Source: an uncultured Candidatus Binatia bacterium
Lineage (GTDB): Bacteria; Desulfobacterota; Binatia; UBA9968; JAJDTQ01
Length of the DNA: 64,000 bases
Direction of reading: 5' to 3'
Assembly (NCBI GenBank): GCA_965213675.1
Contig: OZ243916.1
Location: 2,944,001 to 3,008,000, forward strand
Numbering within the stretch: the stretch's first letter is position 1; each line of letters begins with the position of its first letter. The translations under genes and the position numbers were made by a program. This document shows, in pieces, positions 52,094 to 63,032 of this stretch. The notes beneath the pieces are model-generated. The model was not told where the DNA came from. It did not search any database and worked only from the letters and a program-made list of their open reading frames with translations.

Positions 52094-53074
52094 ATGGAGT
52101 ACCGCCAGTTCGCAACCACCGACTGCAAGGTGTCGCCCATGGGGCTCGGCTGTCTGAGCATGTCGGGCATGTACGGCGCCGGCAACGACGATGAATCCAT
52201 CGCCACACTGCACCGGGCCTTCGACCTCGGCATCAATTTCCTGGACACCTCCGCCAGCTATGGCAACGGCCACAACCACGAGCTCATCGGCAAGGCCATC
52301 AAGGGCCGGCGCGACCAGGTGGTGATCCACTCCAAGTCCGGCAGCCCGCGGTCCGCCGCTGGCGCCGGCCTCGACGGCGGCAGTTCGCCCGAGTACCTCG
52401 TCCAGACCTGCGAGGAGAGCCTCCAGCGGCTGGGCATCGACTGCCTGGACATGTACTGCATGTCCCGCATCGACCCCGCCGTCCCGGTGGAGGAATCGGT
52501 GGGCGGCATGGCGCGCTTGGTGGAGCAAGGCAAGACCCGTTACATCGGACTCTCCGAAGCCAGCGCCGATTCCATCCGCCGCGCCCAAAAGGTCCACCCC
52601 ATCGTCTCGCTCCAGATCGAATACTCACTCTGGTCCCGGGACCCCGAGCAGGGCAACATCGAGGCCTGCCGCGAGTTCGGCATGGGCCTCATGGCCTACT
52701 CGCCCCTGGGCCGCGGCTTCTTCGCCGGCGCCGTCCGCAGTCTCGACCAGCTCGCCGAACGCGACGGCCGCCGCAACCAGCCCCGCCTCCAACCGGGCAA
52801 CATCGAGCGCAACCTGGAACTGCTCGCCCAAGTGGACGAAGTCGCCAGGGAGAGGGGCATCACCACGACCCAGCTTGCCCTGGCTTGGCTCATGGCCCAA
52901 GGCCCCGACATCATCCCCATCCCCAGCAGCAAAAGCCGCAAGCACCTGGAGGAGAACATCAAAGCCGTTGAGGTGGAGTTGACGGAAGAGGACCTGCAGC
53001 GGCTGGACGCAATCCTCCCTTACGGCGCCGCCGCCGGCAACCGGACACGAGACATGAAACGGGTGAACGTGTAG
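52094..53074 (+). CDS. Aldo/keto reductase
   Basis: GLGC, DTSASYG, IGLSE, EYSL, YSPLGRG. Confidence 0.93.
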   Translation: MEYRQFATTDCKVSPMGLGCLSMSGMYGAGNDDESIATLHRAFDLGINFLDTSASYGNGHNHELIGKAIKGRRDQVVIHSKSGSPRSAAGAGLDGGSSPEYLVQTCEESLQRLGIDCLDMYCMSRIDPAVPVEESVGGMARLVEQGKTRYIGLSEASADSIRRAQKVHPIVSLQIEYSLWSRDPEQGNIEACREFGMGLMAYSPLGRGFFAGAVRSLDQLAERDGRRNQPRLQPGNIERNLELLAQVDEVARERGITTTQLALAWLMAQGPDIIPIPSSKSRKHLEENIKAVEVELTEEDLQRLDAILPYGAAAGNRTRDMKRVNV

Positions 53075-53135
53075 GTGCAAACTTGAAGCGGAATTTGATT
53101 TGCCTTAGTAACCGTAGAGCTTCGATTCTTGGCAT

Positions 53136-53354
53136 TTGCAGGTCGATATAATCAATTTGAGGAAACAGGAGATAGGAGGGGAGGCCTATTGTATGGCGGT
53201 TGAAGGCTCCGAACGACTCAAGAGTCTAGCGGAACGGGAAATTCGGAATGACGTAATGCATTTCGATCCGGACGGTATAGACCCTAATGACACGAATAAA
53301 CTGGAAGAGATCGCCCAATTCTTTCGCGACTTACGGCGTGTAGGAGCAATATAG
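53136..53354 (+). pseudogene. Possible C-terminal fragment of a HEPN-domain protein
   Basis: IRNDVMHF matches the RxxxxH motif; AT-rich; no convincing start. Confidence 0.45.
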
Positions 53355-53798
53355 GTGCGGTCTAGGGCACTGTTGTGTTTTAGAGGACGCGGCAAAACCG
53401 ACACCCTTCTCCCTTACCCCGCTGTTGGCAACCGGGCACGAGATCCGGAAGTATGAAACCAGCCTACTCGAAGGGTTCAGGCCCACCGTCAATCTGAGGG
53501 ATACAGAGCCTGAGGAGAGGCTCGCCGAGGGGCTAAGCGTCCTACAACCGGGACCGTACGCGCGACAGCCTCCGCGGCCGGTCACCGCTCGACCGGCTGT
53601 AGGATCTCCTACGCGAGGCTCCTGCCGGCCAAGAGGGGTCGCCGCCGGCTAAGATCAGAATCGCGAGTTTAACTTGCCTCGGAAAGCTTGGCCCACAATT
53701 CACCCGGGTCGTCGTTGAGACCATGTAGGCAGACGACACAGATGGAGCAAGTGAACGTGTAGAAGGGCGTCGAAGATTACTTGGACTGGACACCGCTA

Positions 53799-54821
53799 TC
53801 AGTCCCGTTCGGGCTGGTTCGTCGACGGCTGTGCACAAACATTGGGTAGGCGGTCATTGATCGCGATTGCCAAGTCACAGCCGAAGTTTCGTGTGTTGTC
53901 GGTGACTACCGTCTGCGCTCCCGTCGCCGCGACATACGCAAGGGTTTCTTCGAAATCAGCGTGGTTCGACAAGGCCACGCGATAGGCCCGATCTGAAAAG
54001 ACCTTCAGCGGATGGTCGTGGTCGACCATGTACGCGCTACAGGTGACCATTGTCCCCTCGACTCGCTCGTTCTTGAAACCGTCGCCCTTTGAGTAGAGCC
54101 GCACATATGAACGCTGTTGCACGGCGTGCCTGCCGTCGGCGGAATCGAGCGGAACCAGTACTCCGGGCGCGAGGCCATGCTGCTGGTATACCTGCACGCG
54201 CCGGATTAGCCGCTCGGTGGCCAGAAGGGGAACGCCCACGTTGTCTCCAAGCACCTGCAAGGTGCGTTCGATGGTTCCGGGGTGGGCGTGGATATGGACT
54301 GAACCGTGCCGTAGTCTCGCACAGACTATTTCAGACAGGCAGGCTTCCGCTTGGTCCTGCGTGTAACCTCGGACGCTACGGGGGTTACCATAAGTACTGT
54401 CAACGACCAGTTCATCGACTTGGATCACGTTGTCGAGGGGCCATCCGAAGTCGCCGGAATATCCAATCCGATGACCGTCTGGCAACTCCAGGGCAACCTG
54501 ACACGATCCAAGCATGTGGTTCGATGGGACTAGATGTAACGTAAAGCCTTTTCCCAGATCATGCGCGACACCGCGTTCGACCGGGTGGAAGTTCTCTCGG
54601 TACTCCAGATCAGCATTGTACTCGGCAATGAGCAAAGCATAGGTCTCAGGGCTTAGCAGGAACTCCTGCAGCCCCTTGCTCTTGTTGAACGCACCCATGT
54701 GGTCTTCATGGACGTGTGTCTGGACACGGAAGCGGCAGCCATTAGCGAAACCGTCGCACACGACCATCTCGCCGAGGCAGACAGCGCCACTCTCCCGCAC
54801 GTCAACCATCGGGTCAGGCAT
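53799..54821 (-). CDS. MBL-fold (beta-CASP-like) nuclease
   Basis: THVHEDH (HxHxDH), SNHMLGS, YSGDF, DSTYG, SNHADF; ATG 54821 overlaps the upstream stop. Confidence 0.85.
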   Translation of the reverse strand: MPDPMVDVRESGAVCLGEMVVCDGFANGCRFRVQTHVHEDHMGAFNKSKGLQEFLLSPETYALLIAEYNADLEYRENFHPVERGVAHDLGKGFTLHLVPSNHMLGSCQVALELPDGHRIGYSGDFGWPLDNVIQVDELVVDSTYGNPRSVRGYTQDQAEACLSEIVCARLRHGSVHIHAHPGTIERTLQVLGDNVGVPLLATERLIRRVQVYQQHGLAPGVLVPLDSADGRHAVQQRSYVRLYSKGDGFKNERVEGTMVTCSAYMVDHDHPLKVFSDRAYRVALSNHADFEETLAYVAATGAQTVVTDNTRNFGCDLAIAINDRLPNVCAQPSTNQPERD

Positions 54822-55524
54822 TTGCGACACACTCCGCAACAAAGGCGCGCAGCAGAGATTCAATGTCTTGCTTGCCGACATGCTTCATTGACACGCCAAA
54901 ACCCTCGTCCCCGACCAAGGTGAAAATTTTGGGGCCTAGGCGTCCTGACGCCCCCTTTAGCCCGATTTTCTCCACGCCCGCCGCCAACATTGCATCCCTT
55001 TCTCTTTGTGGAAGCTCCGCAAGAGCTCGCTGTGCACCGCGATCAAGTATGGTGCCGATGAACACGTAACGCCGGTCGATTGCTTGCCGCATGTTGATGA
55101 CTTCCTTCACGCACTCGCTGACCGGCCGTCGTGAGCGTTCGCGCAGTTGCACGACCTGTCGGACCTCTTTGCTATTCAGGCCGTTGGCGAGTATCGCTTC
55201 GGCGACCGTGCGTTGGTCGTCAGCTTTCGGAAGTCGGGTGAGTTCGGTAGCACATGAGAACCCCACGGCATCTCGAGGGCTGCCCCAACTTATCACGTGC
55301 CGGAGGTCGTCCGGGAGGTCAAGAATACGCAGGAAACGTCTAACGCCCGTCGCGTCGATCCAGGTCTCCTTTGCACATTCGTCAAGTGAACTGCCGGCAT
55401 CGCATGCCCGCTGCAGCAATGCACCGACTTCGACCGGCGAAAGTAGACGCTCCTTTCTATGTTTCCCGTAGCCGACCGACATCCGGAGACGTCCAAGTTC
55501 TAGAGGGCTCAGACCTGGGAGCAT
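54814..55524 (-). CDS. ParB/Spo0J-like HTH protein lacking the N-terminal CTPase domain
   Basis: LSPVEVG...SLDECAK...VRRFLRILDLPDDLR...ELTRL...GLNSKEVRQ follows the Spo0J central helical pattern. Confidence 0.6.
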   Translation of the reverse strand: MLPGLSPLELGRLRMSVGYGKHRKERLLSPVEVGALLQRACDAGSSLDECAKETWIDATGVRRFLRILDLPDDLRHVISWGSPRDAVGFSCATELTRLPKADDQRTVAEAILANGLNSKEVRQVVQLRERSRRPVSECVKEVINMRQAIDRRYVFIGTILDRGAQRALAELPQRERDAMLAAGVEKIGLKGASGRLGPKIFTLVGDEGFGVSMKHVGKQDIESLLRAFVAECVANA

Positions 55525-55538
55525 GATGGCTACTAATC

Positions 55539-56357
55539 TCAGAGTCCGCGGCCGGTCAGCGCCTCTTCGATGAGCATGACGGTCGCGTCTCCCTGGTTGG
55601 TGCCTTCTTCCCGGGCGACCTGCTGGATGGCACGATGCGTATCCTGTGTCACGGTAGCGACAACCTGGATGACCTTCGAGCCGGACTTCGCGCCCTCTAT
55701 AACCTCTACGACAGACTTGTCGGGATTGTCTCTTCGATCCTCCTCCACCTTCTTGCGTTGGGCTCCTGACATCGATGCCATCTCCTGGGCCAAGACAAGG
55801 GCGTCGTCGGTGTTGACCGCGCCGTCGTCGTCCGTTGCCGAATCCTGCGCACGCAGTGCGGCATTGACATCAACTTGTCCTTCGTCGACCAAGTCCTTCA
55901 GTTGTTTCACCAGCCGGGGGTACTTTACGTAGTCCCGCACTTCCCGATGGGGCAGGCCTGTTGTCTTGACCACGTCCTGAACGCTTCCGTATATGTTGTA
56001 AAGGTAAAGGATTCCATCCTTGAGTTCTTTGCCCGACAGCTTGCGACGTATTAGGTTTTCGGTGATGGAGATTGTCTTGGCCTCAGCCTGCCCGACTTGG
56101 CTGTCAAGCACGGCGGCCGAGATGGTGTCTCGATTCAGCATCTTGTAAGCGAGGAAGCGCCGCTGACCTGTAAGGATCTCCCATTTCCCGGGCTGTTGTT
56201 TCGACTTGCAAACCACGATCGGTTGCAGTAGCCCTTGCGCTTCGATACTTGCGGCGAGATCCTCAACGCCGGCCCCCGGGTTCTCTGTCCGGACCTGTCC
56301 CAGACCAATTACCAAGTCGTCGAGGGGTATTTCGCGGTAATCGATGATTTTTGCCAT
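55539..56357 (-). CDS. ParB/Srx family protein
   Basis: LAASI...GLLQPIVV, TGQRRFLA, ENLIR; AAGGAG RBS before ATG 56357. Confidence 0.85.
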   Translation of the reverse strand: MAKIIDYREIPLDDLVIGLGQVRTENPGAGVEDLAASIEAQGLLQPIVVCKSKQQPGKWEILTGQRRFLAYKMLNRDTISAAVLDSQVGQAEAKTISITENLIRRKLSGKELKDGILYLYNIYGSVQDVVKTTGLPHREVRDYVKYPRLVKQLKDLVDEGQVDVNAALRAQDSATDDDGAVNTDDALVLAQEMASMSGAQRKKVEEDRRDNPDKSVVEVIEGAKSGSKVIQVVATVTQDTHRAIQQVAREEGTNQGDATVMLIEEALTGRGL

Positions 56358-56361
56358 GGCT

Positions 56362-57774
56362 TTAGTCTCCTTCGGTTGCATTGGAAGAGGGCGAAAGGGT
56401 GCCCTCCGCAAGTTCTAAAATCTCCATGAGTTCGCGCTTGGTGAGTCGCCCGCGCACCGTCCCCACAGATTCGATGACCTCGTCGAATAGGGCCTCCTTC
56501 CGGTCGAGCACTGTAGCTATGCGCTCTTCGACCGAGTCTCGGACCAGGAAACGGATGACATGCAGCGGCCCTTCCCGTTCGAAGCGGTGCGCTCGGTAGA
56601 CTGCCTGGAACTCGACTGCAGGATTCCACCAGCGGTCGAACAGGACGGCGTGGGTCGCCTCCCCGAGGTTCAGGCCGACGCCGCCGGCACGAAGGGAAAT
56701 CAATAGTGCCCGCGGTGTTTGGCCTGTCCTGAACCGGTCGATAGAAATCTGTCTCTCGGCTGCCGGCATGGAACCGATCAGAAGGTCGTGGGGTATTCCG
56801 ATCCGCTGGGAAATCTGCCGAAGGGTCTGGACGAACTGCGAAAACACAATCATCCTCGCCGATTGCCCAGCGCCTTCGCAGATGGCTGTGAGGGCCTCCA
56901 GTTTCGATGAAGCACCGCTCTCGACGTCGTAGTTGCAGATCACCTTTAGTCGCGTAATGAGACCGAGCATGGCGGCGTTGGAGTCTTCCTTTTCCCCGCC
57001 GATTTGTGCCGTTCTGGCCGCCCACAGATCGTCGTAGGCGATCCGTTGTGGCGACGAGAGCTCGAGGTACAGATCCTGTACGATGACAGCCGGCAGTTCG
57101 GCCCGCACTTCACGTTTCCGCCGCCGCAGCATCATTGCCTCCAGCCTCTTGTTCAGCCGTGTTGCATCGGGATCCCGACGAATATCGGGGTCCAGGAAGG
57201 CGAGGATTGAGGCGACGTCTTCGCGGTCGTTTTCGAGCGGCGTCGCAGACAGTGCCCACGCACGTTTTCGCGGCAGCAGCCGGCAGGCGAGTGCCGTTGC
57301 GGAGTTCTTGTTCTTGATGCGTTGCGCTTCGTCCAGGATGACGAGATCGAACGTGCCTTTGGGAATCTGATCCAGTCCGTCTTGACGGATCTGTTCGTAA
57401 GAGGAGACGAGAACAGGGATCGGCAGCAGGTAGAATGCCTTCCGGCTGGCGGCCCCGCCCTGAAGCCGTCGCGTCGCCAGTGACGGTGCCCATGTAGTGA
57501 GTTCGGACATCCAGTTCAGCGTCAGCGAGGCCGGGGCCACGATCAAGGCTCGGTCGATCCCCTTTTGTCCATTGAGGAGAAGTGCAAGAGCGATTGCTGC
57601 CTGGACGGTTTTTCCCAATCCCATCTCGTCAGCGAGAAGGGCAGACGTGGACTGGTACAGGAATGCCACTCCCTCCCACTGGTACGTGTGAAGGGCGGCG
57701 GGGAGCATGAGTTGATCTTCGGCCGCGCTCCGGAGATCTTGCACGTCCAGCGTCACTCGAAGACCCACACCCAC
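56362..57774 (-). CDS. SNF2-family ATPase (core only)
   Basis: LADEMGLGKT, LDEAQRIKN, SATPLEN, VFSQF, AGGVGLNL, WWNP...RAHR; start uncertain. Confidence 0.9.
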   Translation of the reverse strand: MGVGLRVTLDVQDLRSAAEDQLMLPAALHTYQWEGVAFLYQSTSALLADEMGLGKTVQAAIALALLLNGQKGIDRALIVAPASLTLNWMSELTTWAPSLATRRLQGGAASRKAFYLLPIPVLVSSYEQIRQDGLDQIPKGTFDLVILDEAQRIKNKNSATALACRLLPRKRAWALSATPLENDREDVASILAFLDPDIRRDPDATRLNKRLEAMMLRRRKREVRAELPAVIVQDLYLELSSPQRIAYDDLWAARTAQIGGEKEDSNAAMLGLITRLKVICNYDVESGASSKLEALTAICEGAGQSARMIVFSQFVQTLRQISQRIGIPHDLLIGSMPAAERQISIDRFRTGQTPRALLISLRAGGVGLNLGEATHAVLFDRWWNPAVEFQAVYRAHRFEREGPLHVIRFLVRDSVEERIATVLDRKEALFDEVIESVGTVRGRLTKRELMEILELAEGTLSPSSNATEGD

Positions 57775-57891
57775 ACGGCAGCTTCAGCGATATCTCGTTG
57801 GCATGTCTCGATAACCGCCCGCGAAATGTGCTGTGTCATCGAAGTTAGCCTGTGACCAGCGAACTGCAAATACATATGACTTCATTGACCA

Positions 57892-59664
57892 TTAGCTCTC
57901 CTCGCGTCCGGAAAAGCACCACACCTGAGCGGCCGCCTTTGCGAGGTCCCTTGAGCGTTCGGCCACCGCCGTCGGAGTCCACTCGTCATGTATAGCTACA
58001 TCGCGTGTCATTCCAAATGGGCTGGTCTCAAAAACAGCCTTCTTGGCGGCGAAGTTCGCGTTGAAACGGTGCCGTGCATGATTGCCGCTGTCGCCCAGCA
58101 ATGTCAGATTCCCGATTCGAGCAACCCAGTCCCGGAGGTCGTATCCCACCGACGTGAAGCCGGTCCAACCGGACCAGTAGGTCTCCGACTGCGGCAAGAT
58201 GTGTTCCACGGAACATCCTTCATAGTCGAATGCGCGGCCTTCACGTTCTTGCTTGCCGTTGATTCCGAACAACAGTCGTTTGGCTCGCCGGGAATCGGTC
58301 ATCTGAACATCGAGGAGGCGAGAAATAAATCGTGTGTCGTCCATTATCATCAAGTCATCACATTCTTCGAGATCTGTTTTTATGTCGAGGTCAGCGACCT
58401 TGCTACTGGTCGCGATTCTCCTGGCACAATTGGCAAAACCCGGCTCTACTCTGGATGGTTCGAATTTGGCCCCGCAGAAGGAGAGGCGCATCACGAAGGA
58501 AGAAAGGTCGCTGAGGCAGTGATGCGCGGCTTTGGCTACTGCTCTCCGGTACCGATCTTCGGCTTCGATGAACTTCCGTAACAATGCAAACATTAGCGGT
58601 TGCACGACCTTATAACCACCCAATTCCTGAATGAACACAGGCAGATTACGTTTGTGTCGGGTGGTGCCGGACGCCGTGCAGAAGGCATTAAGCAGTTCCT
58701 TGCTTGGGTTTGTGGCAGTGATAGTCCGGAACAGTTCCACGGCAGCGGGACTAGCAAGCTCATGGACTAGCGCGTAAACGTGCTTGTCTCCATCCGGTCG
58801 TCGCCCAGGATTGCGGATCTTCGCCCGAGTATCGCGATAAAAGCGGGTCTTCTGAAGATAGCCGTACCGACATTGAAAGAAACAGCGGAAATACTCTTGG
58901 GATCGCGTAGTGCTTCGAGTAGTTGCGAGGACGCTTTCAAGCTGCTCGTGGACGGTGGCGCGCCGCTCTGAGTCGGCAGGATCTGTGAAGTACGAGTAAA
59001 GGTGGTTTCGAATTAGATCAACGTCATCCAGTCGCTTGCCTCGTCCATTGAGGGCTTCGAAAACGGCATTGGCGTCCTCTGTCTTGGGGACGTAGAGGAC
59101 ACCAATCTCGACCTTCTGCGTCAGGAAATCGAAAAACGTTTGGGTCTCACTCGGCCCCATTGCGCTGACGAACAGGGCCACTTCGTTCCAGGCGGAGGTC
59201 AATTTGCCGTTCGTCCCGATGTCGAGGCCACGGATAATCTGAGTAAACCGCGATCGGTCTTGGCGTGGCGGCTCGACGCGAGGCACATCCCGGGTCGTGT
59301 CGTCGAAGTTGGTGACCGCGTTCTCCGGGCGATCGAACAGTACGCGCAACGCGAGCATTTCACGGCCAGCGTCCGTGTCGCGGTTATTTGCGAACCGCCG
59401 GCCGAATGCAGCAAAGAGTAGGGAGAGGGTGATCATGCGCTGCTGACCGTCGTTGATTTCCCAAACATCCTCACCCGCGACCAGCATAATGGACCCGAGG
59501 AAGTAACTTGCCCGATCTTCGTCCAGGGCTTCTTTGAGGTCGACCAACAACTCGGTGACCTGCTCTACGGTCCAGTCGTAATACCGCTGATGCCACGGCA
59601 CTGTGAACCGTCCCTTGAGGAAGAGCTCGGACACGAGCAATGCCTCTGACGTGATCTGGGTCAT
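57892..59664 (-). CDS. DUF262 + DUF1524 (HNH) protein, GmrSD/SspE-like
   Basis: QRYYDW, DGQQR, FEALNGRG, then EHILPQ and IGNLTLL. Confidence 0.88.
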   Translation of the reverse strand: MTQITSEALLVSELFLKGRFTVPWHQRYYDWTVEQVTELLVDLKEALDEDRASYFLGSIMLVAGEDVWEINDGQQRMITLSLLFAAFGRRFANNRDTDAGREMLALRVLFDRPENAVTNFDDTTRDVPRVEPPRQDRSRFTQIIRGLDIGTNGKLTSAWNEVALFVSAMGPSETQTFFDFLTQKVEIGVLYVPKTEDANAVFEALNGRGKRLDDVDLIRNHLYSYFTDPADSERRATVHEQLESVLATTRSTTRSQEYFRCFFQCRYGYLQKTRFYRDTRAKIRNPGRRPDGDKHVYALVHELASPAAVELFRTITATNPSKELLNAFCTASGTTRHKRNLPVFIQELGGYKVVQPLMFALLRKFIEAEDRYRRAVAKAAHHCLSDLSSFVMRLSFCGAKFEPSRVEPGFANCARRIATSSKVADLDIKTDLEECDDLMIMDDTRFISRLLDVQMTDSRRAKRLLFGINGKQEREGRAFDYEGCSVEHILPQSETYWSGWTGFTSVGYDLRDWVARIGNLTLLGDSGNHARHRFNANFAAKKAVFETSPFGMTRDVAIHDEWTPTAVAERSRDLAKAAAQVWCFSGREES

Positions 59665-60833
59665 AAGGGATGTACGGATTTGAGAAGGGCGAGTCGACCG
59701 TTTTCGGTGATCTCGTCACGCCACCAAACGTCTTCGATGCACTCGATCTCAGCAGGAGTGATAAGCGTGTCACCGACCATCTTCTCTAGTGCCAAAAGTC
59801 GTTCGAGAATTGTCCGGCGTACGGTTAAGCTAAATGGGCCGAATACTTGGGAACCGTCGGACCGGTTCCGAGGGTTACCGTCACGGCGCACGGGAAGTCG
59901 ATTGCTGTCATCCTCCCGCAAGGTGATGAGCCATTCGCGGAAGTCCGACAGGCGTTCCATCTTTGTGGCCTCCTCGTGCCCAGAATCGATCAGGCCCCGG
60001 ATGCTGCGGTCTTTGGCGACCACCGTACATGTCCAACAGCCGAATCGTGGGGAGGAACTGCCACATGATGGTGCGTCGTCTTGTGTCATTACTAGTGGAC
60101 ATTCTCCCCCTCCGGCTTGACGATAGAGAGTGATCAGCCGGCGATGGTTGCCGCCCCATGGTGGGCGGCGTTGCATCAATACCATCCAGACATCCTCATC
60201 GCTGAGGTCGGCAAGCGGGGAGAATATCCGACAGCCCTCCACAGAGTCGTGTTGATTGCTTTTCGTGGCAGACACTTTGCGACGGTCCATGCCTCGCTGC
60301 CGGTTCTGCGACTCGCTTCGCCGGGTCCCGATGAGGAGAATAGCTCCGCCGTGCTCTTTCACGAGGTCTCTTAACAGCCGGCTGGTCGGTCGTATTTTCA
60401 TCCGGTCCGTGCACCACCGAAAATTTCTGGTGGGCGGTATGTATCCACGTCCTATCACACTGACCCAAAATGTCTGATCGACGGCCGGTGTGGTAACGCG
60501 AATGTCAACAGGCATTTCCTGGTCCGCGGCGGCGTCTCCGATCACGTTGAGCGATCCTCGGAGATGCCGAATGACGAGCGGCGACTCGACTAGAGTATCA
60601 TTGCCGACGATGAAGATGGATCGCTGCCGTTGGTCTGTTGGTAGCCCGGCAACTGTTTCCCAAATCATCTGTAGGAGAAGGGTGGAGTCCTTCCCTCCAG
60701 AATAAGCAACAATCCAGGGATGGCTGTGCTTGCGACAGTACTCCCGTCGGAGGGTCTCTGCGATCTTCTTGAGTCGCGTCGGTAGACTCGTCAGGCTGTT
60801 ACTGGTCGAAGTTGAACTCGTTGGCGCTTTCAT
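59661..60833 (-). CDS. dndC: DNA phosphorothioation sulfurtransferase DndC (PAPS reductase fold), short form
   Basis: PWIVAYSGGKDS, DTLVE, FRWCTDRMKI, GTRRSES, RFGCWTCTVV, GPF. Confidence 0.9.
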   Translation of the reverse strand: MKAPTSSTSTSNSLTSLPTRLKKIAETLRREYCRKHSHPWIVAYSGGKDSTLLLQMIWETVAGLPTDQRQRSIFIVGNDTLVESPLVIRHLRGSLNVIGDAAADQEMPVDIRVTTPAVDQTFWVSVIGRGYIPPTRNFRWCTDRMKIRPTSRLLRDLVKEHGGAILLIGTRRSESQNRQRGMDRRKVSATKSNQHDSVEGCRIFSPLADLSDEDVWMVLMQRRPPWGGNHRRLITLYRQAGGGECPLVMTQDDAPSCGSSSPRFGCWTCTVVAKDRSIRGLIDSGHEEATKMERLSDFREWLITLREDDSNRLPVRRDGNPRNRSDGSQVFGPFSLTVRRTILERLLALEKMVGDTLITPAEIECIEDVWWRDEITENGRLALLKSVHPL

Positions 60834-61975
60834 GCCGTAATGCTCCGAAGGGTTGACACAGCGTCATTGACGCGTTGTCCAGCGAAGTCGACCTCTGCCT
60901 CTGTAGTATAGCGACCAACGCTGAATCGTACGGAGGAGAGTGCCAGCGTTTCGATGACACCGAGTCCCTCCAGCACGTGTGATGGCTCAATTGACGCCGC
61001 CGTGCATGCGGAACCTGCCGAGATCGCAATATCGCCAAGAGCAAGCATCAACGACTCGGCTTCCACGCCGGGAAAGGCAATGTTCAAGATGCCTGGGACT
61101 CGCGCGGTAAGGTTGCCGTTGATGACCGCCGCCTCAATCCCGTCCAACCAGCCAAGGAGGCGTCGGTCGATGGCTGCTACCCGCTCCGCATCGCTACTCT
61201 GACAGTCATTGATGAGCCGCGCCGCGGCTCCTAGACCAACGACCTGATGGGTCGCCAGCGTCCCAGCCCGCAGCCCGCCTTCCTGTCCGCCCCCGTGGGT
61301 CTGGGGCACGAGCAAGGGCCGGACGGAGCGGCGCACAAATAGAGCACCGACACCTTTCGGGCCATATATCTTGTGGCCACTCAATGACAGGAGGTCTACT
61401 CCCATGAGCGAGACATCGATCGGGAGTCGTGCGGCGCTCTGTACGGCGTCGACATGAAACAGTGTGCCGTTTTTCCTTACCACGCGCGCTATGCTCGGGA
61501 TATCAGTAACAGTCCCAACCTCATTGTTTACGTGCATAAGAGAGACTAGCGCGGTGTCCGGTCGAAGATCCGCGCGGACGACATCGGGCGTGATCATGCC
61601 ATCGGCGTCAGGTGTGAGGTAGGTCACCGCCACGCCCTGGCCAGAGAGCCAGTCTGCGGTATCGAGTACTGCCTTATGCTCTAGTGAGGAGACGAGGAGA
61701 TGTCGACCGCGTACGCTAGGCGATAGCATTACTCCCTTGATGGCCAAATTGATCGCCTCTGTCGCACCGGAGGTCCAGAAGATTTCATCGGCATCTGCGC
61801 CGATCAACCGCGAGACATGCCCGCGGGCATCCTCAATAGCCTCTGAAGCTGCATGCCCAAAGCGGTGGGTGACGGAATGCGGGTTCCCGAAGACGCCGTC
61901 GGCTGTCAGAAACTTGACCATCGTGTTCGCGACTTCCGGTGCAACAGGGGTCGTCGCGGCGTAGTCTAGGTACAC
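60830..61975 (-). CDS. dndA: Cysteine desulfurase DndA/IscS-like
   Basis: YLDYAATTP, TSGATE, HVNNE, SGHKIYGPKG, SAGSAC; GTG start at 61975 inferred; stop overlaps the dndC start. Confidence 0.88.
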   Translation of the reverse strand: MYLDYAATTPVAPEVANTMVKFLTADGVFGNPHSVTHRFGHAASEAIEDARGHVSRLIGADADEIFWTSGATEAINLAIKGVMLSPSVRGRHLLVSSLEHKAVLDTADWLSGQGVAVTYLTPDADGMITPDVVRADLRPDTALVSLMHVNNEVGTVTDIPSIARVVRKNGTLFHVDAVQSAARLPIDVSLMGVDLLSLSGHKIYGPKGVGALFVRRSVRPLLVPQTHGGGQEGGLRAGTLATHQVVGLGAAARLINDCQSSDAERVAAIDRRLLGWLDGIEAAVINGNLTARVPGILNIAFPGVEAESLMLALGDIAISAGSACTAASIEPSHVLEGLGVIETLALSSVRFSVGRYTTEAEVDFAGQRVNDAVSTLRSITA

Positions 61976-62246: not shown

Positions 62247-63032
62247 TCAGGACATCAACCGCCCGCCGGAAACGTTCAACGCCTCGCCGGTCGTGTGTGA
62301 GGAATCGCTCGACGCCAGGAAGAGGGCGGCATTCGCCACCTCTTCGTGCAGTGCGTGCTTCCGTAGCGGGGTGTGGGCCAGGACGCCCTCCCACAACTCC
62401 TCGAAGGAGACGCCGAGGCCCTTGGCGCGGTCGTGGTACATTTCCCGCAGGTCGGCTTCGTCCATGCCGCCGGGGCAGATGACGTTGGCGCGCACGCCCG
62501 AGGGCCCGGCCTCCTTGGCGATGGTCTGGGTGAGGCCCAGAAGGCCCCACTTGGCAGCGCACAGGGAGCCGCGCAGGGCCATGCCCTCGCGTCCGGCAGT
62601 GCCGGAGATGCTGACGATGCTGCCGCGCTTCTGCTCGATCATCACCGGCAGCGCCGCCTTGCAGCAGAGGAAGATCGCCTTGAGGTTGACGTTGAGGACC
62701 TGATCCCACTCGTCCTCGGTGATCTCGTGCACCTCGACCATGGGCCCGCGGAAGCCGACGCTGTTGACAAGGATGTCCAGCCGGCCCAAGCGGCTCACCA
62801 CGTCGGCCACCATCCCGTCCATCTGCGCCGCGTCCGTGGCATCGGCCGTCATGGCTACGGCCTCGCCGCCCTTCTGTCCGATGGCTTGGACGACCCCGTC
62901 GAGCTCCGGCTCCATCTTCTCGAGATCCACCAGAACGATCTTTGCGCCCTCACCCGCGAAGGTGTGGGCGATGGCCTCGCCGATGCCGCGGGCGCCGCCG
63001 ACGATGACTGCAACCTGGTCTGCCAGTTTCAT
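62247..63032 (-). CDS. Short-chain dehydrogenase/reductase (atypical active-site helix)
   Basis: GGARGIG, ICPG, NVSGG; LCAAK in place of YxxxK. Confidence 0.88.
   Translation of the reverse strand: MKLADQVAVIVGGARGIGEAIAHTFAGEGAKIVLVDLEKMEPELDGVVQAIGQKGGEAVAMTADATDAAQMDGMVADVVSRLGRLDILVNSVGFRGPMVEVHEITEDEWDQVLNVNLKAIFLCCKAALPVMIEQKRGSIVSISGTAGREGMALRGSLCAAKWGLLGLTQTIAKEAGPSGVRANVICPGGMDEADLREMYHDRAKGLGVSFEELWEGVLAHTPLRKHALHEEVANAALFLASSDSSHTTGEALNVSGGRLMS

Follow-up and report, generated by a model that had tools for sequence, protein, structure and literature searches.

Concerning the modification of DNA with phosphorothioate (PT), the available text of PMC10853773 treats DndD/CxC and DndE as the obligate core of Dnd modification and puts taxa without them down to poor assemblies. 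DndI, a DUF262/DUF1524 protein defined in 2024, works together with IscS-DndBCDE in defence according to the accessible part of PMC11662687, and in the Tdp system tdpC is reported to be enough on its own for the synthesis of PT (PMC12914056, text in part). Here we describe a seven-gene operon at positions 53799-61975 of a stretch of 64,000 nucleotides (the window: contig OZ243916.1, positions 2,944,001 to 3,008,000, assembly GCA_965213675.1) from an uncultured Candidatus Binatia bacterium. The operon encodes a dndA-like cysteine desulfurase, a short DndC, a DUF262/DUF1524 protein that we call G, a SNF2-family protein (SNF2), a ParB-type protein (ParB), a helix-turn-helix protein (HTH) and a protein with metallo-beta-lactamase fold (MBL). 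The first three genes apparently represent a monophyletic, G-coupled writer clade without DndD and DndE, and the last four apparently constitute an undescribed, Dnd-dependent accessory module.

In common with canonical DndABCDE, the DndC of the window reaches the curated DndC equivalog model (TIGR03183, 340.3 bits vs. a cut-off of 290.4), possesses the PP-loop and the cysteine cluster, and is encoded next to a cysteine desulfurase gene. It differs from the canonical set in that it aligns to positions 6-350 of the 447 profile positions, such that the C-terminal ~100 positions are absent, and in that DndD/CxC ABC ATPase, DndE and DndB matches are missing from this genome. The PP-loop motif SGGKDS and the cysteines C245, C257, C266 and C269 are invariant in 37 relatives, and among PADLOC models the protein matches DndC at 7e-113 vs. 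1.1e-6 for SspD; a comparison with the PDB sequences gave no match, and no DndC chain is contained in the PDB. The dndA product is a cysteine desulfurase of the class-V aminotransferase fold (Aminotran_5, 2e-82), which matches the PADLOC models of SspA (5.7e-144) and DndA (5.3e-141) and stays below the NCBIfam cut-offs for IscS and DndA (375 vs. 480 for DndA, TIGR03235).

Both Pfam domains of G pass their gathering scores (GmrSD_N, 3.3e-25, 89.8 vs. 33.2; GmrSD_C, 1.1e-17, 64.6 vs. 23). Its sole match among the PDB sequences is the collinear DndI of Salmonella (9JFL, E 1.3e-8); among PADLOC models, HEC-06 fits best (5.8e-68), followed by 'Orf5' (8e-47), and SspE (1.7e-11) matches the N-terminus of G only. 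The motif DGQQR and the residues H488, N519 and N535 are invariant among the aligned relatives. G is the fastest evolving of the seven proteins, with a mean identity of 45% vs. 61-64% for DndC, SNF2, ParB and MBL.

The coupling of a DndC-type enzyme with an SspE/GmrSD-like protein had been regarded in an initial annotation of the window as fitting neither Dnd nor Ssp. Such a coupling is no longer unprecedented in view of IscS-DndBCDE-DndI, in which a DUF262 + DUF1524 protein with DGQQR and HNH motifs likewise stands beside Dnd writer genes (PMC11662687, accessible part). Despite this likeness, the similarity between G and DndI is weak and confined to three short stretches, the position of Y25 of DndI is occupied by a histidine, and G is predicted to bind DndC. 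Furthermore, DndI occurs with IscS-DndBCDE and is co-transcribed with dndFGH, whereas no DndB, DndD or DndE match exists in the present genome (dndFGH was not searched for). In the SspABCD-SspE locus, too, a desulfurase, a 3'-phosphoadenosine-5'-phosphosulfate (PAPS)-reductase-type enzyme and a DUF262/DUF1524 protein are encoded together, but the PAPS-reductase-type enzyme of the window is of DndC type and the SspE models do not extend beyond the N-terminus of G. The proposed lack of sspBC holds for sspB insofar as the genome contains no DUF4007 (SspB) match in a search without positive control, SspC not having been searched for. The Tdp system, likened by description only, provides a precedent for PT writing without DndD and DndE, whereas the partners found here (G, SNF2, ParB, MBL) differ from those named for Tdp.

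The absence of dndB, dndD and dndE, also noted initially, extends to the whole genome (4.53 Mb, 97.7% complete, 8% contaminated), in which neither DndD (TIGR03185, E<=0.001) nor DndE (TIGR03184, PF08870) nor DndB (PF14072) gave a match. The DndD and DndE profile searches were validated on a Mesorhizobium plasmid, where both proteins were found (positive control). Five other operon-carrying genomes had no DndD match, and the four of them searched with PF08870 had no DndE match; among the genomes searched, DndD exceeded its cut-off in one only (G024). Within the 80 DndC-anchored loci introduced below, DndE was detected by tblastn in 0/80, and a DndD-like ATPase is present only in L004 and L069, as part of a different block. 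Neither a position of dndDE elsewhere in the genome nor their recent deletion, which had been named as possible objections, applies: the whole G-linked DndC clade is without them. The idea that the shortness of DndC compensates for the missing DndDE was rejected too, because a DndC of 355 aa on the Mesorhizobium plasmid is accompanied by DndD and DndE. Membership in BREX type 4 finds no support either, BrxP matching only at 1.1e-10 and no PglZ, BrxC or BrxL model matching any of the seven proteins. In a scan of the PADLOC HMMs, no family set matched the locus as a whole, and two of the seven proteins match no PADLOC model, in agreement with the initial view that the locus fits neither Dnd nor Ssp.

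The gene order, whose conservation had been suggested as a check, is found in many other genomes. A search for the short-DndC family yielded 5672 matches among 8000 candidates scored, with the best 120 relatives being 359-399 aa long and 66-89% identical; taking one genome per species, 526 stretches with DndC relatives were obtained, the best 80 of which form the DndC-anchored loci (L003-L082). Here, dndA is situated directly upstream of dndC in 63/79 loci, and G adjoins dndC downstream in 72/78. The complete set of SNF2, ParB, HTH and MBL occurs in 39 of the 74 loci that extend 7 kb or more downstream. In 37 of these 39 the order dndC-G-SNF2-ParB-HTH-MBL is collinear with the window, which argues against a chance assembly of the operon, and 29 of the 37 are immediately preceded by dndA; L006 and L041 have the block in inverted orientation. 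The 39 six-gene loci stem from at least 8 named phyla. Over this range of at least 8 phyla, DndC identities amount to 56-94%, a sign of intense recent horizontal transfer. Within the genus the distribution is patchy, with DndC exceeding its cut-off in 6 of 18 genomes (8 of the 31 genomes searched overall, the window's own included). Several of the records with DndC relatives bear candidate genus names which we take to have been coined for sponge symbionts.

Concerning mobile elements, conjugative plasmids very commonly carry DndC-like genes that are accompanied by neither dndD nor dndE (e.g., the Streptomyces plasmid L084). Of the 2527 plasmid records with a match, 1906 are typed as conjugative, and all matches are less than 60% identical to the G-linked DndC clade. 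The plasmid records contained no match to MBL. Among the IMG/VR viral contigs, a single relative of the DndC clade was found, with 24% identity, and there is no sign of carriage by phages in this set.

Downstream of G, three alternative blocks are found. Besides SNF2-ParB-HTH-MBL, a pair consisting of a 110-aa GIY-YIG nuclease and a DndB-family (PF14072) protein of ~425 aa follows directly after G in L010, L012, L033 and ~22 further loci; altogether, a DndB-family gene occurs in 25/74 loci, 22 times together with the small GIY-YIG nuclease. This pair and the SNF2-ParB-HTH-MBL block are nearly exclusive, both being present only in L037 and L053 of the 74, and L051, which has less than 7 kb downstream, likewise possesses the block and DndB. 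In L004 and L069, G is followed by an ABC-ATPase/FtsK/AAA block like that of the Mesorhizobium plasmid (L083, 12962-18526), where an ABC-type ATPase of ~676 aa, an FtsK/SpoIIIE-domain protein, an AAA ATPase and a hypothetical protein are situated after dndE. Eight loci have none of these modules. As single peculiarities, L038 carries a second DUF262/DUF1524 gene in opposite orientation after MBL, and L073 a tandem pair of DndB-family genes.

The SNF2-ParB-HTH-MBL block is not confined to G-linked loci. A search of metagenomes anchored on MBL gave 110 relatives, 80 of which were kept (L085-L164). HTH precedes MBL in 63/65 of these loci; of the 42 that reach 3.3 kb or more upstream of MBL, 38 have SNF2, ParB and HTH all preceding it. 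Thirty loci are at least 12 kb long, and 28 of them contain ParB, HTH and MBL; of those 28, at least one dnd gene is found in 27, dndC in 25, and DndD or DndE in 20, but G in only 3. DndB accompanies the block in 7 of the 30. In L091, for example, the order is dndC (542 aa, 562 bits)-dndD (488 bits)-dndE (87 bits)-SNF2-ParB-HTH-MBL-dndA. The metagenome loci being mostly linked to dndCDE, the block serves both canonical and DndDE-less writers and is a Dnd-linked accessory module common to the two.

A comparison of identities to the window's proteins, the one reference used, in 36 loci gives a similar picture. Identity covaries among dndA, dndC and G (r = 0.89 for DndC-G, 0.67 for DndA-G, 0.48 for DndA-DndC) and among SNF2, HTH and MBL (r = 0.41-0.62), whereas that of DndC or G does not covary with that of SNF2, ParB, HTH or MBL (r from -0.29 to 0.21). 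Since dndA-dndC-G is paired with other blocks elsewhere and SNF2-ParB-HTH-MBL mostly accompanies canonical dndCDE, the operon is, by sequence comparison, composed of two separable modules. The initial suggestion of one possibly undescribed system thus needs to be divided: the SNF2-ParB-HTH-MBL block is undescribed in the literature searched, but the seven genes do not form an indivisible unit.

The SNF2 protein comprises SNF2-rel_dom (7.9e-45) and Helicase_C (8.8e-19), with the motifs GKT, DEAQ and QAxxRxHR conserved; its PADLOC matches are limited to the helicase cores of DpdE (the best), ZorD and DrmD. ParB contains ParB_N (3.2e-13), exceeds the cut-off of TIGR00180 and matches Noc, Spo0J, ParB and KorB among the PDB sequences (E 2.7e-10 to 1e-6). 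Its GQRRFLA and TENLIRR boxes are conserved in 35 sequences, as would be expected of a ParB/Noc-type clamp. HTH matches HTH_ParB (1.1e-5), and its structure model (predicted local distance difference test, pLDDT, 92.1) resembles in Foldseek the DNA-binding domains of Spo0J, Noc and ParB over ~105-130 columns (E ~1e-3); its Atlas cluster is named 'ParB HTH domain-containing protein' (score 0.94). HTH has no PADLOC, PHROG or NCBIfam match and nothing meaningful among the PDB sequences. ParB and HTH exhibit no significant similarity to each other, which rules them out as recent paralogues. MBL has no Pfam, PADLOC or PHROG match and reaches TIGR04122 (7.7e-13) below its cut-off, whereas its model (pLDDT 86.9) resembles Artemis, SNM1A, Apollo and CPSF73 in Foldseek (E 3e-15 to 1e-12, template modelling score ~0.6-0.7). 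HxHxDH (H56, H58, D60, H61), H122, D144, D161 and NHAD (N306-D309, including H307) are invariant, and MBL is predicted to be a beta-CASP nuclease, compatible with either DNA or RNA as substrate.

The block holds the same position as DndFGH and PbeABCD, namely that of several genes joined as a unit to the dnd writer, whereas its content (SNF2 core, ParB clamp, ParB-type HTH, beta-CASP nuclease) differs from theirs; no DndF, DndG, DndH or Pbe model is among the PADLOC matches listed for the four proteins (for SNF2, the best 25 of 41 families). The Dpd 7-deazaguanine system is similar in combining a ParB-like NTPase (DpdB) and a SNF2 helicase (DpdE) in a DNA-modification island. However, the SNF2 protein corresponds only to the C-terminal helicase core of the far longer DpdE, the locus contains no tRNA-guanine transglycosylase (TGT)/DpdA, and its modification enzyme is DndC.

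In the tree of DndC, a group of 85 rows comprises all 76 G-linked sequences, 8 from loci in which no nearby G was detected and one unlabelled representative; 84 of these rows fall into a clade with a Shimodaira-Hasegawa-like support of 98, and no DndDE-linked DndC is situated inside. The closest outgroup with known context is the 355-aa DndC of the Mesorhizobium plasmid (48.6% identity), from a dndA-dndC-dndD-dndE operon. Among 112 dndC-bearing loci, G and DndE never occur together (G only in 75, DndE only in 23, neither in 14).

Co-folding of DndC with G gave a score of 0.74 vs. 0.00 for the best of three controls. Of 80 solved complexes, 58 attain the mark applied, as do 2 of 110 mismatched pairs, a calibration that is rough here because own alignments served as input. 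At least 91% of the contacts are common to the three runs, with a partner pLDDT of at least 83, and the lowest-error contacts lead from DndC residues 378-386 into G residues ~305-324 and 366. These DndC residues lie beyond the part shared with DndDE-linked DndCs; of 26 alignments with the latter, 24 end at residues 366-377. The model supports a binding of DndC to G, and it is unlikely that the score stems from a remembered complex, because the PDB is without any DndC chain. Owing to the predicted binding and the mutual exclusivity with DndE, G may belong to the writer. The initial interpretation of G as a modification-sensing nuclease may therefore be too narrow.

A second syntenic copy of the region is present in the assembly: contig C18 (44 kb) matches C1:2979129-3018791 over ~40 kb, including the whole operon, with 93-100% protein identity. 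It looks like a co-assembled strain variant, which fits the contamination estimate of 8%. Along the window, G through MBL are part of a stretch (46.9 kb to 59.4 kb) that is 96.6-100% identical to C18, and identity falls to ~92% at 59400-61400, over dndC and most of dndA. This suggests that the writer genes have been exchanged for another allele, with the breakpoint close to where dndC meets G. Between the two copies, pN/pS (nonsynonymous to synonymous polymorphism) amounts to 0.13-0.16 (0.16 for dndA), i.e., the genes are under purifying selection. Inside the C18 variant of the neighbourhood, a repeat of ~1.3 kb (C18:10633-11964; also at C1 ~1271196, 1480784 and 2649074; 94-96% identity) is probably an insertion sequence.

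The gene content of the locus is an observed fact, as are its conservation and modularity, the lack of DndDE and the association of the accessory block with dnd genes. We consider it about evenly balanced whether these facts reflect a horizontally mobile island for PT-type modification and defence, composed of a DndD/DndE-independent writer and a Dnd-dependent accessory arm; the low G+C content, the patchiness within the genus, the spread over at least 8 phyla and the purifying selection between the assembly copies count in favour as defence-like behaviour. The initial interpretation is thereby supported in part, with dndA-dndC-G proposed in place of its minimal two-gene writer.

In mechanistic terms, the desulfurase would make a persulfide and load sulfur onto the short DndC, as judged from family knowledge, and DndC would activate the backbone phosphate and transfer the sulfur. 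Through its clade-specific C-terminal tail, DndC is predicted to be coupled to G, which would provide nucleoside triphosphate (NTP)-driven DNA engagement and nicking in place of DndD and DndE or of SspC and SspB, and which may also sense PT like DndI and SspE. In the accessory arm, the ParB-type clamp and its HTH partner would engage or load on DNA, the SNF2 motor would translocate along it, and the Artemis/SNM1-like beta-CASP nuclease would degrade DNA without the sulfur mark. That dndA-dndC-G often occurs without the block, and the block almost never without dnd genes, fits a restriction arm that needs the mark of self. The complete proposal, i.e., a three-gene PT writer in which G on the DndC tail replaces DndD-DndE, plus a new Dnd-dependent restriction arm whose nuclease would tell self from non-self by being blocked at PT links, is put forward tentatively and is clearly less secure than the island as such.

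A number of points weigh against the island with a DndD/DndE-independent writer. PT-type modification and defence are, here and for the whole DndC clade, predictions from the genes, and the role proposed for the accessory block draws on context and predicted folds. The DndC tree, made with FastTree from 226 sequences, was rooted at its midpoint, and a short DndC is not peculiar to the G-linked clade, as the plasmid relative beside DndD and DndE demonstrates. The co-fold score is a prediction, distinct from a measurement of binding, and the covariation of DndC and G, obtained with one reference in 36 loci, may reflect mere tight linkage. Moreover, dndA-dndC is ~92% identical between the two assembly copies and G through MBL 99-100%, from which it follows that exchange has separated DndC from G at short range. 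The PT-sensing Y25 of DndI, in addition, aligns with H25 of G, a histidine nearly invariant in 37 sequences.

Further counter-arguments speak at the same time for a different role of G. DndA and DndC alone might write the mark, perhaps with housekeeping factors, and G might be a PT-sensing NTPase-nuclease of the DndI/SspE type that leaves marked self DNA intact and nicks invader DNA without the mark, with no part in writing. G has the architecture of DndI and SspE, DndI as its sole PDB sequence match and PADLOC matches to 'Orf5' and SspE. DndI itself acts with IscS-DndBCDE in defence (PMC11662687, accessible part), and if tdpC alone is enough for PT synthesis (PMC12914056, text in part), DndC might need no partner. 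The rapid evolution of G is typical of immune sensors, too. However, a free-standing reader would have no need of the predicted interface with DndC, and the strict exclusivity of G and DndE (0/112) stands against the free variation of the effector arms. G is, moreover, near-obligatory for its DndC clade (72/78), and the residue aligned with Y25 is a histidine instead of the tyrosine of DndI. This reading is possible, but we regard it as doubtful.

Somewhat less probable still is that SNF2-ParB-HTH-MBL helps the Dnd writer in loading or in its regulation, a part also suggested for DndB or DpdB, or that it repairs nicks and oxidative breaks at PT sites. ParB-fold proteins are partners of modification enzymes in the pairs DndB-DndC and DpdB-DpdA (PMC12839542, text in part), and the block and the GIY-YIG + DndB pair exclude each other nearly completely (both in only 2/74 loci of the G-linked search). 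MBL is nearest by sequence to TIGR04122, a ligase-associated DNA-damage-response exonuclease, and by fold to SNM1A, Apollo and Artemis. Yet DndB stands beside the block in 7 of the 30 long metagenome loci, such that ParB is not a simple substitute for DndB, and about half of the dndA-dndC-G loci do without the block, whereas the block almost never does without dnd genes.

It is improbable that the DndC clade makes no DNA phosphorothioate at all and, with G, introduces or processes a different mark or has a different nucleic acid as its substrate. Both components deemed obligatory for Dnd modification are missing (PMC10853773, available text), and the DndC profile is not covered over its C-terminal ~100 positions; on the other hand, DndC scores above the equivalog cut-off with an invariant PP-loop and Cys cluster, a cysteine desulfurase gene lies directly upstream in 63/79 loci, the nearest outgroup (48.6%) is a short DndC within a DndD-DndE operon, and the same accessory block accompanies canonical dndCDE. 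That the operon is a decaying, non-functional remnant after the loss of dndDE, as their absence and that of dndB from the genome might suggest, is contradicted by an architecture conserved in 37 collinear loci and at least 8 phyla, by the conservation of all catalytic motifs, by pN/pS values of 0.13-0.16 and by intact ATGA translational-coupling overlaps, and is very improbable.

Regarding the layout (Table 1), all seven open reading frames (ORFs) are co-oriented on the minus strand at the positions given initially, and the domain calls are confirmed. The junctions proposed are found as well. ATGA at 60830-60833 combines the stop of dndA with the start of dndC, and ATGA at 59661-59664 the stop of dndC with the start of G. 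The gap between SNF2 and ParB is 4 bp long if ParB starts at ATG 56357 (MAKIID...), where conservation begins, and the overlap of HTH and MBL 8 bp if MBL starts at M21 (54821); residues 1-21 of the longer MBL frame are disordered in the structure model, consistent with the latter start. For dndA, GTG 61975 is a plausible start, as homology begins there and GAAGAGGG is situated just upstream. As likewise noted initially, the region is richer in AT than its surroundings, with a G+C content of 0.54-0.61 over ~53-62 kb vs. 0.64-0.68 in the flanks. The ~720 bp (53075-53798) that separate the aldo/keto reductase gene from the end of MBL contain only short ORFs without family match and may represent an edge of the island or a remnant. 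A scan for promoters and terminators yielded no more sites than shuffled sequence.

Table 1. Genes of the operon and its borders, with positions in the window
Feature	Position	Strand	Remarks
dndA-like cysteine desulfurase (g1)	60830..61975	(-)	GTG 61975 likely start; open frame reaches TTG 62152
Short DndC (g2), PP-loop/PAPS-reductase-type sulfurtransferase, 390 aa	59661..60833	(-)	G-linked clade
G (g3), DUF262 (ParB-fold NTPase) + DUF1524 (HNH), 590 aa	57892..59664	(-)	GmrSD_N + GmrSD_C
Core-only SNF2-family helicase/translocase (g4), 470 aa	56362..57774	(-)	SNF2-rel_dom + Helicase_C
ParB/Noc/KorB-type protein (g5), N-terminal NTP-binding domain + HTH	55539..56357	(-)	ORF reaches TTG 56411
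ParB-type HTH protein (g6), without N-terminal NTPase domain, with C-terminal alpha/beta domain	54814..55524	(-)	HTH_ParB
Beta-CASP metallo-beta-lactamase-fold nuclease (g7, MBL)	53799..54821	(-)	ORF reaches ATG 54881
Aldo/keto reductase gene (border)	52094-53074	(+)	flanking gene
Short-chain dehydrogenase/reductase (SDR) gene (border)	62247-63032	(-)	flanking gene

Concerning previous reports, the combination of a Dnd writer with a DUF262/DUF1524 protein is already known from DndI (2024), and DndC-DUF262 neighbourhoods are mentioned in passing in the accessible parts of two publications. PMC12914056 counts 'DUF262' as a potential PT system not yet described, based on a small cluster of DndC in which a P-loop NTPase is present too, and in PMC6790972, dndA/B/C-like genes of sponge Thaumarchaeota are described together with a DUF262/DUF1524 'dndB-like' gene. 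A phosphorothioation system that is enriched, though 'not functionally complete', is reported for sponge metagenomes in the available text of PMC5099237. The literature searched contained no description of the SNF2-ParB-HTH-MBL block or of the DndDE-less clade, the supplements of PMC10853773 and PMC12914056, which may list such neighbourhoods, lying outside this search. In the main text of PMC10853773 the words lactamase, CASP and metallo are absent and SNF2 appears only with regard to DndH.

The absence of DndD and DndE from genomes titled chromosome-level metagenome-assembled genome (MAG) assemblies challenges the view of an obligate core, with poor assemblies behind its absence, as expressed in the available text of PMC10853773. 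If dndA-dndC-G indeed writes PT, it would constitute a compact writer of three genes that could serve to engineer PT DNA, and a single protein, G, would couple writing and sensing. The SNF2-ParB-HTH-MBL block would add a fourth type of PT-linked effector module to DndFGH, PbeABCD and SspE/DndI, and would bring ParB-type clamps into restriction.

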